Made by a program: the position numbers and the translations under genes. A DNA stretch of 4,535 nt from a virus (lineage: Duplodnaviria > Heunggongvirae > Uroviricota > Caudoviricetes), in IMG/VR virus record IMGVR_UViG_2667527584_000004. The stretch is one strand, 5' to 3'. Under the pieces are notes generated by a model. That model did no database searches. It was not told the origin of the DNA and saw nothing but the letters and a program-made list of their open reading frames with translations. The stretch's first letter is position 1. Each line of letters opens with the position of its first letter. Below, piece after piece: positions 1-4,325 of the stretch.

Positions 1-325
1 CGGCAAGAGTCAGTAATTGTCCCTGGTCTTCCTGCAGAATAGTCAGGCGACCACCGCGATTGACATACATCGGCGTTTCGGTGGTGTCTTCTTCGGAAAT
101 TTTCCCGCGGTTAGTCGGACGAACATATGAGAGTTTGTGTTTTATTTTCACACGGTTCTCATCAAACGGTTCGATTTCCAGGTTGAGCGAGACCTTACCT
201 TTGGTTTTCGTGTTCATCACACCGGAAGCGACTTCACTGAGAACTGCGCCGATTTTGGTTTCAAATACGCCGCCGTCCAGCTCCCCGATAAATTCCTGCA
301 CGTTGGTACTGCGTTCGCTAGCCAT
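1..325 (-). CDS. Hypothetical prophage early-left protein; N-terminal ~108 codons only, gene continues past the window start
   Basis: Minus-strand reading frame open to the window edge, so absent from the ORF track. ATG at 325-323 with GAGGAG (338-333) 7 nt upstream. Translation begins MASERSTNVQEFIGELDGGVFETKIGAVLSEVASGVMNTKTKGKVSLNLEIEPFDENRVKIKH. Family not recognised. Confidence 0.7.
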   Translation of the reverse strand, partial: MASERSTNVQEFIGELDGGVFETKIGAVLSEVASGVMNTKTKGKVSLNLEIEPFDENRVKIKHKLSYVRPTNRGKISEEDTTETPMYVNRGGRLTILQEDQGQLLTLA

Positions 326-373
326 TTTGCTGCTCCTCATCATATCGACCCTGCAAGGTCGGTTGGTTTCTCC

Positions 374-462
374 ACAAAACAGAGAAGAACACCTGCGGTG
401 GCAGCCGCCCGGGTGGATTGGGTTATGAGCCCGTCGTCCGGTGATGCTCTTCTCTGTTTTGT
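374..462. repeat. 15-bp perfect inverted repeat (ACAAAACAGAGAAGA at 374-388, TCTTCTCTGTTTTGT at 448-462) around a 59-nt GC-rich spacer
   Basis: Read directly from the sequence; the arms are exact reverse complements. Confidence 0.8.
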
Positions 463-508
463 AAAAAGAGCGGTACCAGCCGGAAGCAAGGGTACAAGCT
501 GGTACCGC
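461..508 (-). terminator. Candidate intrinsic terminator for leftward transcription
   Basis: 11-bp perfect GC-rich stem (470-480 GCGGTACCAGC pairs with 498-508 GCTGGTACCGC) with a 17-nt loop. On the minus strand the stem is followed by TCTTTTT (469-463). No T-tract follows it on the plus strand. The loop is long for a canonical terminator. Confidence 0.45.
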
Positions 509-793
509 CAGGACTACACACAGCATAAAGTTGTGGTGCCGGGTGCCTCCCGGTGCCTGGCGAAGGTTGCACACCAGGCGGGTGGGTATCCACAGAAGGT
601 CGACTGTCAGCCTCAACCTTAACCCGCGTGCGCTGAGCCGCATTCACCACAACGCTAAGGATTCTCTCTGGTTGAAAATACTTAGCTGTTATGTGCCTGC
701 TTTTAGCCACATCAGGCGAGGTGGGCCTGGTTATTCCCCAACAACAAGGATTCGGCTAATCTGGATGACTCTGTTCTTAGAGGGGATAATTAA

Positions 794-1441: not shown

Positions 1442-1469
1442 ATTATGTATCTCAAAGGTACATTGTCAA
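1442..1469 (-). promoter_or_regulatory. PL-like leftward promoter
   Basis: Minus strand: -35 TTGACA (1469-1464), 16-nt spacer, -10 CATAAT (1447-1442). An operator overlaps the spacer. Confidence 0.6.
1446..1462. promoter_or_regulatory. OL-type operator TGTACCTTTGAGATACA (one mismatch from TGTAC-N7-GTACA)
   Basis: Same 17-bp dyad as the two perfect sites between the repressor and cro-like genes. An extra TGTACC half-site lies at 1441-1436 on the minus strand. Confidence 0.5.
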
Positions 1470-1508: not shown

Positions 1509-2183
1509 TTAGGCTTTGATTTTGTATCTTCTTGGTTTTCCTGAGAAAATCACAGTACCAATTATAGAGCAATTACCGTTGATCTTAATGTAAGGCTCAG
1601 GCCAGTTTGGGTTTAACGCTTTGAGATAACGCTGTGTCCCATCTTCTATCAACCTTTTGAAGGTGGTTTCACCTGTATCGTGCATCAATGCAATAACGTC
1701 GTCACCGTGGCAGGCAGGTACTTCAGGATCGACAAAAATCATGTCTCCCGGGCGGTACTCATCAATCATTGAATCACCTATCACCCGCAAGATATAAGTC
1801 ATTTCCCCACAGGGTACAGGGCAGGGATACGTTTCTGCTGTGCTCAAATCAACCTCAGAATATCCAACTTCTTTCCATGCTCCGGCCTGTACCCATGATA
1901 TGACAGGGACTAATGTGATTTGTTTATTAGTGATTGAAACATCAGGTTTTTTTGTGATGTTCGTTGTCTGGTGTTCTTGATCGAGCCATCCGACAGGCAG
2001 GTCGAAACATTTTTCGATGTGTCGTGCCATGCTGTCACCGATATTTTTAGTAGCACCATCTCCCATAAACCTGCTGGTCTGGGTTGGCTCGCGATCAATC
2101 ATAGTGGCAAAGGAAGAATTCCCGCCAACACCATCTCTCAGTTTTCTGGCGTTAGACCGCCGGATGTCATGGATTGTTTTCAT
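1509..2183 (-). CDS. cI: CI-type prophage repressor (N-terminal HTH, C-terminal S24 LexA-like autopeptidase domain)
   Basis: 224 aa. C-terminal half carries the S24 signatures: VQAGAW (Ala-Gly cleavage site), ILRVIGDSM (catalytic Ser), TFKRL (catalytic Lys), and a VDPEV...LKALNPNWP...INGNCSIIG pattern resembling P22 C2 / lambda CI. Divergent from the cro-like gene across an operator region. Confidence 0.92.
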   Translation of the reverse strand: MKTIHDIRRSNARKLRDGVGGNSSFATMIDREPTQTSRFMGDGATKNIGDSMARHIEKCFDLPVGWLDQEHQTTNITKKPDVSITNKQITLVPVISWVQAGAWKEVGYSEVDLSTAETYPCPVPCGEMTYILRVIGDSMIDEYRPGDMIFVDPEVPACHGDDVIALMHDTGETTFKRLIEDGTQRYLKALNPNWPEPYIKINGNCSIIGTVIFSGKPRRYKIKA

Positions 2184-2505: not shown

Positions 2506-3069
2506 ATGAGGCTAATCGTGGGTAAGCATCACTGGAAAATAGAAAAACAGCCTGAGTGGTACGTGAAAGCTGTCAGAAAAACGATCGCGGCGTTGCCGGG
2601 TGGTTACGCTGAAGCGGCTGACTGGCTCGATGTAACAGAAAACGCTTTATTCAACCGCCTTCGTGCAGATGGCGATCAGATTTTCCCGCTGGGATGGGCA
2701 ATGGTTTTACAGCGTGCTGGTGGCACTCACTTCATTGCTGATGCTGTGGCGCAGTCTGCAAATGGCGTCTTTGTGTCTCTTCCTGACGTCGAGGATGTGG
2801 ACAACGCCGATATCAACCAACGCCTGCTGGAGGTCATTGAACAGATCGGCAGTTATTCAAAACAGATTCGTTCAGCAATTGAAGACGGTGTAGTGGAACC
2901 GCATGAGAAGACAGCAATTAACGATGAGCTGTACCTCTCAATTTCGAAGCTGCAGGAGCATGCAGCACTGGTCTACAAAATCTTTTGCGTTTCAGAAAGT
3001 AGTGACGCCCGCGAGTGTGCAGCTCCGGGCGCCGTGGCGTGTCGTGACTGTGGAGAAACTAACGCATGA
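2506..3069 (+). CDS. YdaT/CII-like early regulator
   Basis: 187-aa ORF 31 nt after the cro-like gene. Family call is from remembered similarity to YdaT-type proteins that follow YdaS in Rac-like prophages. ATG 2506 has no clear Shine-Dalgarno; an in-frame GTG at 2518 preceded by GAGG (2508-2511) is an alternative start. C-terminus has a CRDC motif. Confidence 0.8.
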
Positions 3070-3404
3070 ACAGTTTAACAACACACTACCGTCGCTCGCA
3101 ACTGATTGCGCTTCCTGTACCGGGTGGAAAAGCGAAGGTGGAGTATTGCTATGCAGTAAATGTACCAGGTGACAGGGAAATTGTAACCCACAGCTTTGCT
3201 GAGTGGGCTGTGGGTGATTTCAACCGGCAGAAGGAGACAGTCCTTTGCGACAAGTTAACCGCTGGTTCAAAGATCACTACGGAGTGCCCGTCAGAGTCAT
3301 TCGTTGGGAACCGGAAACACAACGGGTTATCTACCTCCGCGAAGGCTATGAGCATGAATGCTTCAGTCCGCTCGAACAGTTTCGTCGTAAATTCAGGGAA
3401 ATAG
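3066..3404 (+). CDS. Hypothetical ORF (doubtful); overlaps the stop of the preceding gene (ATGA) and the whole small gene at 3245..3424
   Basis: 112-aa ORF from the track. The N-terminal half looks protein-like; the C-terminal half is Ser/Asn-rich and looks like an off-frame read of the 3245..3424 gene. Confidence 0.3.
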
Positions 3405-3424
3405 AGGTCGGTCATGAGCACTAA
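3245..3424 (+). CDS. Small phage protein, DUF4222-like (tentative), TTG start
   Basis: AGGAG (3232-3236) 8 nt upstream of TTG 3245. Translation [59 protein letters not shown] fits a remembered DUF4222 pattern. Overlaps the O-like start by 11 nt. Below the ORF-track length cut-off. Confidence 0.5.
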
Positions 3425-4325
3425 ATTAACCGGCTATGTATGGGATGGTTGCGCTGCGTCAGGCATGAAGTTATCCAGCGTGGCAATTATGGCCCGCCTG
3501 GCTGATTTCAGTAATGACGAAGGTGTGTGCTGGCCATCAATTGAAACCATTGCCCGCCAGATTGGCGCGGGGATGAGTACCGTCAGAACGGCTATCGCAC
3601 GGCTGGAAGCAGAAGGCTGGTTAACGCGTAAGGCGCGTCGCCAGGGTAACCGCAATGCGTCGAATGTTTATCAGCTTAACGTTGCGAAGCTTCAGGCAGC
3701 GGCATTTTCTCAACTGTCAGATTCTGACCCGTCAAAATTTGATGCGTCGAAATCTGGCAAAAAAGCGGGTTTTCACCCGTCAGAATCTGGCGGGGATCCG
3801 TCAGTAAAATCAAAACATGATCCGTCAGATAAAAAAACTTCTCGTCCGGACGCTTCGCAACCGGACACGCAGACGGCTGAACAGGAGTTTTTAACTCGCC
3901 ATCCTGATGCTGTTGTATTCAGCCCTAAAAAGCGCCAGTGGGGAACGCAGGATGATTTGACCTGCGCACAGTGGCTCTGGAAAAAAATCATCGCCCTGTA
4001 CGAGCAGGCTGCCGAATGTGACGGCGAGGTGGTTCGTCCCAAAGAACCGAACTGGACAGCCTGGGCAAACGAAATTCGCCTGATGTGTGTGCAGGATGGT
4101 CGTACTCACAAACAAATCTGCGAGATGTACAGCCGCGTCAGCCGCGATCCGTTCTGGTGCCGTAACGTGCTCAGCCCGTCGAAGCTGCGGGAAAAATGGG
4201 ATGAGCTTTCCCTGCGCTTATCGCCGTCCGTAAGTACGTACACCGAAAAACGCGAGGACCCGTACTTCAAAGCCAGTTACGACAACGTGGACTACAGCCA
4301 GATCCCGGCAGGATTCAGGGGGTGA
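3414..4325 (+). CDS. Replication initiator, lambda O-like (N-terminal HTH, iteron-encoded linker, C-terminal domain)
   Basis: 303 aa. GAGG (3403-3406) 7 nt upstream. N-terminal winged-helix-like segment SIETIARQIGAGMSTVRTAIARLEAEGWL. The central low-complexity DPS-rich linker is encoded by DNA direct repeats, the hallmark of ori-lambda-type origins inside O genes. Confidence 0.9.
   Translation: MSTKLTGYVWDGCAASGMKLSSVAIMARLADFSNDEGVCWPSIETIARQIGAGMSTVRTAIARLEAEGWLTRKARRQGNRNASNVYQLNVAKLQAAAFSQLSDSDPSKFDASKSGKKAGFHPSESGGDPSVKSKHDPSDKKTSRPDASQPDTQTAEQEFLTRHPDAVVFSPKKRQWGTQDDLTCAQWLWKKIIALYEQAAECDGEVVRPKEPNWTAWANEIRLMCVQDGRTHKQICEMYSRVSRDPFWCRNVLSPSKLREKWDELSLRLSPSVSTYTEKREDPYFKASYDNVDYSQIPAGFRG
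3714..3836. repeat. Iteron array, probable phage replication origin within the O-like gene
   Basis: Six copies of a CCGTCAGA-type core starting at 3714 (CTGTCAGA), 3729 (CCGTCAAA), 3744 (GCGTCGAA), 3777 (CCGTCAGA), 3798 (CCGTCAGT) and 3822 (CCGTCAGA), followed by an A-rich tract (3829-3837). Confidence 0.7.

Follow-up and report, generated by a model that had tools for sequence, protein, structure and literature searches.

A conserved three-way-junction RNA in the early-left operon leader of enterobacterial lambdoid prophages

Background

In bacteriophage lambda the leader of the PL transcript carries a hairpin, between nutL and the ribosome-binding site of N, that is processed by RNase III, and its cleavage sets the 5' end, the stability and the translatability of the mRNA. 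The put RNAs of HK022 stand close to the promoters of both early operons, ahead of the terminators that they suppress, and work through the zinc-binding domain of beta' to give processive antitermination. Mimics of the tRNA anticodon arm are known from mRNAs and viral RNAs, among them the thrS operator of E. coli and the tRNA-like element of HIV-1. Lambdoid phages of the LLS/ST64B/phiNP group are without an N homologue and their early antitermination and regulation are unexplained, with a put-like mechanism having been suggested for LLS (PMC12315714).

Here we describe an element found in a 4,535-nucleotide stretch of DNA from a virus of the Caudoviricetes (IMG/VR record IMGVR_UViG_2667527584_000004), the whole of which was analysed and is called the window below. 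The window is a lambdoid immunity region encoding an S24-peptidase repressor (1509-2183, minus strand), a cII-like CP76 protein (2506-3069) and an O-like replication protein (3414-4325). Within the O-like replication gene, at 3718-3833 on the plus strand, repeated units of 15-21 nt with CCGTCAGA (repeat families D5, D6 and D15 and inverted repeat I4) look from their sequence like origin iterons, as in lambda ori. An earlier note on this DNA had drawn attention to a perfect inverted repeat at 374-462, and we show here that this repeat is the closing helix, P1, of a conserved three-way-junction RNA of about 90-105 nt which is read from the minus strand (462→374). No description of this element was found in the searchable literature.

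Results and Discussion

The inverted repeat and its copy number

The perfect 15-bp inverted repeat was confirmed, with ACAAAACAGAGAAGA at 374-388 lying 59 nt away from its exact reverse complement at 448-462, and so was its placement between a terminator hairpin (470-508, minus strand, with a U-run at 463-469) and the leftward ATG at 325-323. A repeat search extended it to 25-nt arms (374-398 and 438-462) which are 84% complementary, and it is the longest inverted repeat in the window. By our own estimate, about 4e-4 perfect 15-bp inverted repeats within 100 nt would be expected by chance in 4.5 kb; the repeat is far beyond chance and a real feature. The perfect 15 bp belong to the E. coli/Shigella variant only; in the majority of relatives pair 11 is a fixed mismatch, sometimes joined by one at pair 7.

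An 89-bp unit with perfect 15-bp inverted ends resembles a miniature inverted-repeat element (MITE), as the earlier note had remarked, and we counted its copies with this in mind. The unit was present in 2808 of 5426 complete E. coli genomes (about 52%), at a median of 1 and a maximum of 5 places, which amounts to approximately one copy per lambdoid prophage, and it always lay between the repressor/PL region and the first early-left gene of such a prophage, so membership of a family with dispersed copies was rejected. The flanks GGTTTCTCC and AAAAAGAGC were searched for a target-site duplication and have no direct repeat in common. The alternative that the terminal repeats are conserved transposase sites was rejected as well, because the arms change in a compensatory manner (GC:24 vs CG:23 and AU:35 vs GC:11 at two of the pairs). 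Conservation is also strand-asymmetric, as described below. We consider the probability that this is a MITE, or any other repeated palindromic DNA element, to be negligible.

Structure of the minus-strand RNA

The fold prediction for the minus-strand transcript that the earlier note had called for was carried out on the RNA from 470 to 366 and gave -49.2 kcal/mol, compared to a mean of -25.7 for shuffled sequences (z = -7.3, with 0 of 200 shuffles as good); the plus strand folds worse (-44.9 kcal/mol, z = -4.9). The RNA forms three helices, P1, P2 and P3, joined by junction strands of only 1, 0 and 1 nt, and the coordinates given here for its parts are all on the minus strand. The 5' strand of P1 (443-462, RNA ACAAAACAGAGAAGAGCAUC) includes the right arm of the repeat at 448-462, and its 3' strand (374-393, RNA GGUGUUCUUCUCUGUUUUGU), which is pyrimidine-rich and the better conserved of the two, includes the left arm at 374-388. 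P1 is 20 bp long, or about 25 bp if pairing of the terminator U-run with the GGAGA motif described below is counted.

In the P2 arm (409-441) a lower stem CCGG(A/G)/(U/C)CCGG is followed by a short GA/UC helix, then an internal loop and finally the apical hairpin GGGCUCAUAACCC, at whose apex (420-432, GGG-CUCAUAA-CCC) three G-C pairs close a 7-nt loop in which CAU occupies 427-425. The P3 arm (395-408, GCGG-CUGCCA-CCGC) varies among relatives in length, from 14 to about 45 nt, and in sequence, its loop often being UUGCAG. Directly 3' of P1 lies GGAGAAAC (366-373), a Shine-Dalgarno-like GGAGA motif that can pair with the U-run, and GGAGA(A/U)A follows P1 in all of the homologue sets, including those anchored solely on the apex. 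A further small hairpin, H4 (346-361, CGACC-UUGCAG-GGUCG), was read from the sequences. The hexaloop NKGCAG (UUGCAG, UGGCAG or GUGCAG) recurs in H4 of relatives and in many P3 arms, and loop-loop pairing of P3 with H4 via UGCA/GCAG was considered and rejected, being feasible in some variants only. A start codon, either (A/G)UG fused to GGAGA or UUG/GUG in the H4 loop, was likewise rejected as it is unconserved and absent from the Kp4866 and phiNP types.

Two other readings of the fold were discarded. P1 is not an intrinsic terminator, as what comes after it is GGAGAAAC in the minus-strand sense and AAAAAG in the plus-strand sense, and the real terminator is the separate hairpin at 470-508. A ribozyme or riboswitch was rejected given the short junction strands, the lack of a conserved core and a P1 that is far too stable. 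When the element (374-462) was compared to Rfam 15, the best matches reached at most 17.5 bits against gathering scores of 40-88 and no family was found even at E<=10.

Covariation and the functional strand

Homologues were collected by BLAST against phage and E. coli records, by a P2-apex pattern in species-representative genomes and viral contigs and, leaving the apex free, by a pattern of the P1 3' strand plus GGAGA in viral and metagenome contigs. An alignment of 47 diverse sequences (A1) was made and a covariance model was built from it. In A1, 92.1% of cells are paired, compared to 35-49% in controls in which the 3' partners were slid, and 12 pairs have double changes, with 87 compensatory cells versus 31±4 in shuffles; the covariation score was matched by 0 of 500 shuffles. 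All three helices contribute. The 20 pairs of P1 have 93.7% of cells paired and 5 pairs with double changes, with exchanges of GC:24/CG:23, AU:35/GC:11, AU:38/GC:6 and CG:38/AU:6, and P1 does not vary in length, as there is no indel in any of the 47 sequences. Double changes are seen in 4 pairs of P2 (helix 2), for example GC:32 vs AU:8, and in 3 of the 4 basal pairs of P3, for example GC:33/AU:8/UA:3. RNAalifold run on A1 recovers P1, P2 and P3 unprompted and extends P1 by the U-run:GGAGA pairing, whose U:A/G pairs are retained in 44-45 of 47 sequences. The stable long-range RNA stem predicted in the earlier note is therefore borne out by conservation, by compensatory changes and by conserved G·U pairs in the minus-strand transcript.

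The same data bear on whether the repeat acts as DNA, either as the cruciform that was the earlier note's other suggestion or as protein half-sites 59 bp apart for a phage regulator, an integrase or an excisionase accessory factor. The arms are indeed perfect in the E. coli variant, and the unit of the K-12 prophage e14 adjoins xisE-intE, as might be expected of such a site. However, a U·G pair conserved in 39 of 47 sequences, together with several other G·U pairs, fits the minus sense only, since these would be C·A mismatches on the opposite strand, which disfavours a cruciform. With the covariance model the minus sense reaches 127 bits, compared to 41 bits for the mirror strand (ranges 96-144 and 22-44), and from this asymmetry and the conserved U·G and G·U pairs it follows that the functional form is leftward-transcribed RNA. 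Protein half-sites would moreover be expected to be conserved in sequence rather than to change in compensation, and it is the P2 interior, not the P1 arms, that is better conserved. A DNA-level site thus appears very improbable.

Open reading frames do cross the element (a 49-codon TTG ORF at 340-489 in the window, "ymfH" in K-12 and orf40 in cdtI), but a small protein or uORF was rejected because the frame differs among relatives and P3 insertions carry stops; for these reasons the unit is, on our reading, no fragment of a decayed coding sequence either, which the earlier note had allowed for. The K-12 CDS ymfH (our locus L001, 2964-3275) overlies the e14 copy of the element and an STnc100-like region, and RNA covariation along with frame-breaking changes of P3 length in relatives suggests that ymfH is no real protein gene. 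The same doubt attaches to cdtI orf40 and mEp460_036.

Distribution and synteny

Carriers of the element include SfV, SfII, SfIV, ST64B, phiNP, LLS, mEp460, cdtI, e14 and some Stx2 phages. The order of features in SfV, ST64B, phiNP, LLS, mEp460, Stx2a_WGPS2, cdtI and K-12 e14 is the repressor gene (cI), PL, a non-coding leader of about 400-950 nt, a terminator, the element and then the first early-left gene, and this layout recurs in at least 12 enterobacterial genera and before at least 5 unrelated first genes. GGAGA, a small hairpin and the ribosome-binding site of the first gene follow the element, whichever gene this is. These first genes belong to the YfdP family, two RdgC types, a YfbR-like nucleotidase, DUF551 and excisionase, and as the first gene varies the element must serve the operon and not a single gene. 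Searching with the covariance model found exactly one sense copy per locus in 31 loci, with no copy in right operons and none in HK022. A large group of enterobacterial lambdoid phages and prophages is thereby shown to carry the element once, in the leader of the early-left (PL) operon, and that it is a functional leader domain acting as RNA in cis we regard as very probable. No N homologue was reported or annotated in these lambdoid phages where this was checked.

A different arrangement of RNAs was seen in the right operons of ST64B (L003, 6732-6920) and mEp460 (L007, 5671-5859), where isrK and C4-antisense RNA matches lie next to each other, both clearing the gathering scores by a wide margin; this is antirepressor control of the P1/P7 type. 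Neither isrK nor C4 was found in the right operon of the window itself.

The leader upstream of the element

Leftward transcription presumably starts from a PL-like promoter (TTGACA-16-CATAAT, 1442-1469, minus strand), which lies among 17-nt operator repeats (1426-1464) and is identical to a promoter in phage cdtI; we presume this to be the source of the transcript bearing the element. An internal promoter was rejected, as there is no acceptable -10/-35 pair on the minus strand between 330 and 520 and the "TTTACA" of the U-run is without a -10 partner. From PL the transcript crosses a plus-strand moron gene (794-1306) in antisense and then an STnc100-like RNA (461-683, minus strand), which matches RF02076 over its full length with 45.4 bits against a gathering score of 47 (E = 9e-8) and lies upstream on the same transcript as the element.

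The 3' end of the STnc100-like RNA is an intrinsic terminator (463-508, minus strand), with a stem of 508-498/480-470 and a tail UCUUUUU at 469-463, and P1 starts at the base right after the U-run of this terminator. Such a U-run adjoins P1 in 120 of 126 distinct upstream contexts, the other 6 keeping the element without a terminator, and a hairpin with a dG of -10 or lower precedes the U-run in 106 upstream contexts (median -18.5). As read from the upstream sequences, the terminator hairpins fall into several unrelated sequence classes. In relatives with other leaders (cdtI, mEp460, LLS and phiNP) the STnc100 match is absent, and the leaders of these four share a conserved GCUGUGUGUAGUCYUGG just before the terminator. 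One class of relatives (L004 at about 3110-3180, minus strand, L010, L293, L325 and others) has an upstream terminator with a 12-bp stem and a loop of about 38 nt that contains AGGAGG followed by a start-stop mini-ORF (AUG UUC UGA), and a ribosome on this loop could, judging from the sequence, prevent formation of the terminator.

Downstream of the element, the first early-left gene of the window begins at an ATG at 325-323 preceded by a Shine-Dalgarno sequence GAGGAG at 338-333 (323-338, minus strand); it is of the YfdP family (annotated homologues yfdP/orf32/sb37) and leaves the window at base 1. The reading frame of the YfdP-family start at 325 holds extra ATGs at 343-341 and 340-338 (minus strand). 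A frame of 11 codons opens with GUG at the 3' end of P1, closes with a UGA that overlaps the ATG at 343-341 (AUGA), and is unconserved in other relatives.

The product of the moron at 794-1306 is 170 aa long, its N-terminus resembles a signal peptide, and it matches the LprI lysozyme inhibitor weakly (E = 0.006). The moron is inserted antisense into the PL leader and is flanked by an imperfect 24-nt inverted repeat (758-781 and 1298-1321) with the core AATCTGGATGAC. A perfect rrn-type boxA, GCUCUUUAACAA, is found at 1331-1320 on the minus strand, directly after a hairpin at 1353-1332 and about 105 nt downstream of PL, where 0.02 would be expected by chance; this hairpin-plus-boxA cassette doubles as the plus-strand terminator of the moron. 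A boxA-like motif occurs upstream in 28 of 303 related loci, the cassette being nearly unchanged in several of the 28, and going by its sequence and position the boxA may be where Nus factors load onto the PL transcript in the absence of N. A boxA within the terminator tail or the P1 3' strand was also considered and was rejected because the resemblance is unconserved.

The P2 apex and initiator tRNA

The apex of P2 together with the C that precedes it, CGGGCUCAUAACCC (433-420), is identical over 14 of 14 consecutive nucleotides to the anticodon stem-loop of E. coli tRNA-fMet, the sequence of which was verified against annotated tRNA-Met genes. Within homologue sets collected without selection on the apex, 85 of 113 unique sequences have the loop CUCAUAA, the others including CUCAUUC (18), CCCAUAA (4), CCCAUCA (2), UUCAUAA and GUCAUAA. 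Among the 48 unique sequences of the metagenome set, 47 have the C, 46 the A and 48 the U of CAU, and CAU is absent from e14 (UUAAUAA) and from two metagenome variants. The three G-C pairs of the apex are conserved in identity in A1, whereas the other helices co-vary.

These observations raise the question of whether the P2 apex engages something that recognises tRNA-fMet, be it the 30S P site with IF3, MetRS (as in the thrS operator) or a PIN toxin that cleaves tRNA-fMet (VapC/MvpT), and such a mimic could exist in two forms, acting in cis on translation of the first gene or being excised as a tRNA-sized decoy or sensor of about 70 nt. The 14-nt identity, the near-invariant CAU in sets unselected on the apex, the fixed identity of the three G-C pairs and the conserved Shine-Dalgarno-like GGAGA beside the element are all in keeping with this. 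On the other hand, U33 and purine-37 of the tRNA loop, which are near-universal in tRNAs, are both kept in most variants but not in all: position 37 is U in 22 unique variants (CUCAUUC 18, CUCAUUA 4; about 20%) and position 33 is C in the 6 CCCAUAA/CCCAUCA variants. The match is also limited to the top 3 bp of the anticodon stem, ARAGORN found 0 tRNA genes in the element and the Rfam tRNA and tmRNA models gave no match at E<=10, CAU itself is missing from the exceptions given above, and the resemblance was spotted post hoc. Nor is there consistent complementarity between the loop and the start region of the first gene beyond AUG; kissing of the apex loop with the start codon was rejected, as longer complementarity (AUGAG) is found in YfdP-type genes only and not in RdgC, xis or other first genes. 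Engagement of a tRNA-fMet recogniser by the apex is on balance quite unlikely.

We would also call unlikely, if a little less so, the broader proposal that the phage encodes an anticodon-arm mimic of initiator tRNA, whether as a leader in cis that docks into the 30S P site with IF3 or onto MetRS to gate the early-left genes, or as an RNase III-excised decoy or sensor of about 70 nt for enzymes directed against tRNA-fMet (VapC-type). Were the likeness functional, this would be the first natural mimic of the initiator-tRNA anticodon arm in a bacterial or phage mRNA leader and, if true, a new class of bacterial/phage regulatory RNA carried by about half of E. coli genomes.

A role after transcription, in cis

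A put-like role was considered for the element as a whole, in which nascent P2 and P3, bound to RNA polymerase during elongation, would protect it from pausing, Rho and intrinsic terminators along the lengthy early-left operon, replacing the missing N. The phages concerned have no reported N and include LLS, for which such a mechanism has been suggested (PMC12315714), the element heads the operon regardless of the first gene, and its conserved sequence suggests a conserved host target; P2 and P3 are adjacent hairpins with no linker, and put consists of two stem-loops of about 70 nt (PMC9378689). However, no likeness to HK022 putL/putR was seen by eye, and a search of HK022 27.6-30 kb, where PL-putL lies and where putR is also expected from its position, gave no hit of the covariance model at E<=1. 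In addition, the element lies downstream of the only strong terminator of the leader and cannot suppress that terminator, there is no second copy in the right operon, few convincing intrinsic terminators are found downstream in the left operon of SfV, and the enclosing 20-bp helix is without a counterpart in put. Action on Rho-dependent termination may still apply, and the put-like reading overall is distinctly improbable.

We rank a post-transcriptional role in cis first among the readings as the most likely. For its mechanism, RNase III processing coupled to translation is our tentative and somewhat doubtful proposal, ahead of the alternatives above. The element would affect, in cis, the PL transcripts that have passed the terminator. 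About 22 bp of dsRNA fit into RNase III (PMC6212723). A site for this enzyme calls for about two turns (20-22 bp) of nearly continuous dsRNA, and P1 is of the expected size; its 20 or about 25 bp, its invariant length and the fixed central mismatch of most relatives would make it an RNase III-sized duplex. Cleavage of P1 would sever the upstream non-coding leader or sRNA from the coding part of the operon, and this severing would set the 5' end, the stability and the translatability of the early-left mRNA. Intact P1 would sequester the pyrimidine-rich strand CUCUUCUCU, which is complementary to the purine-rich Shine-Dalgarno region downstream, and cleavage might either free or mask this 3' strand; as P1 is too stable (about -30 kcal/mol) for a switch, the anti-Shine-Dalgarno idea could work only after cleavage. 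The sequence-invariant P2 apex would be a recognition module for a conserved host component, the tRNA-fMet likeness pointing to the machinery of translation initiation or of tRNA-fMet handling, with MetRS, the 30S P site with IF3 and nucleases directed at tRNA-fMet as candidates.

Several points count against this processing model. A simple RNase III site needs neither a near-invariant P2 apex nor the conserved GGAGA or H4 motifs, the passage of PL transcripts through the upstream terminator is left unaccounted for, the six contexts without a terminator retain the element, and e14 is repressed in K-12. The function given here is inferred from structure, conservation and context.

For the N-less lambdoid phages (ST64B, SfV, LLS and some Stx2 phages), which have no established mechanism of early antitermination or regulation, the element is a concrete and mutable target, being the one strongly conserved non-coding feature that heads their early-left operon. 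It is widespread yet uncatalogued, occurring in about 52% of complete E. coli genomes, in K-12 e14 and across at least 12 enterobacterial genera while being absent from Rfam, and it is currently annotated over by the dubious CDSs ymfH, cdtI orf40 and mEp460_036.

Comparison with known systems

The element shares with MITEs and REP-type repeats a short length and terminal inverted repeats, and differs from them in being single copy per prophage and syntenic, without target-site duplication and with compensatory arms. As for the prophage sRNAs STnc100 and PasD (RF02076), the STnc100-like RNA just upstream shares a transcript with the element and its terminator adjoins it, but the element lies outside the STnc100 model and is also found behind leaders without an STnc100 match.

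Like the mimics in thrS and HIV-1, it has a 5'-leader hairpin that reproduces, in its loop and upper stem, the anticodon arm of one particular tRNA. Unlike them, it would copy the initiator tRNA, it does not hold strictly to the loop positions universal in tRNAs, its hairpin stands about 100 nt away from the ribosome-binding site and its partners are candidates only.

As with put of HK022, the element is a structured RNA, put being cis-acting, in an early operon of a lambdoid phage without N and has two adjacent stem-loops of comparable size, but it is enclosed by a 20-bp helix, occurs as a single copy in the left operon only and has no similarity to put in sequence or by covariance model. Furthermore, putL starts at +1 (PMC9378689), whereas the element comes after the leader terminator, hundreds of nucleotides from PL.

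The element and the hairpin of the lambda N leader are both large, branched and about 100 nt long, both precede the first gene of a lambdoid PL operon in its untranslated leader, and both have a long, RNase III-sized basal helix just ahead of the Shine-Dalgarno sequence. The element differs in being preceded by a terminator, with no nut site or N gene found here, and in its sequence-invariant apical module and conserved 3' motifs, which lambda is without; the likeness to lambda is one of niche and size, with cleavage a prediction only and no sequence relationship seen. By the features that can be tested here the element belongs to none of the lambda N-leader, put or thrS-type systems, and we rate it as belonging with the structured leader RNAs of lambdoid early operons.
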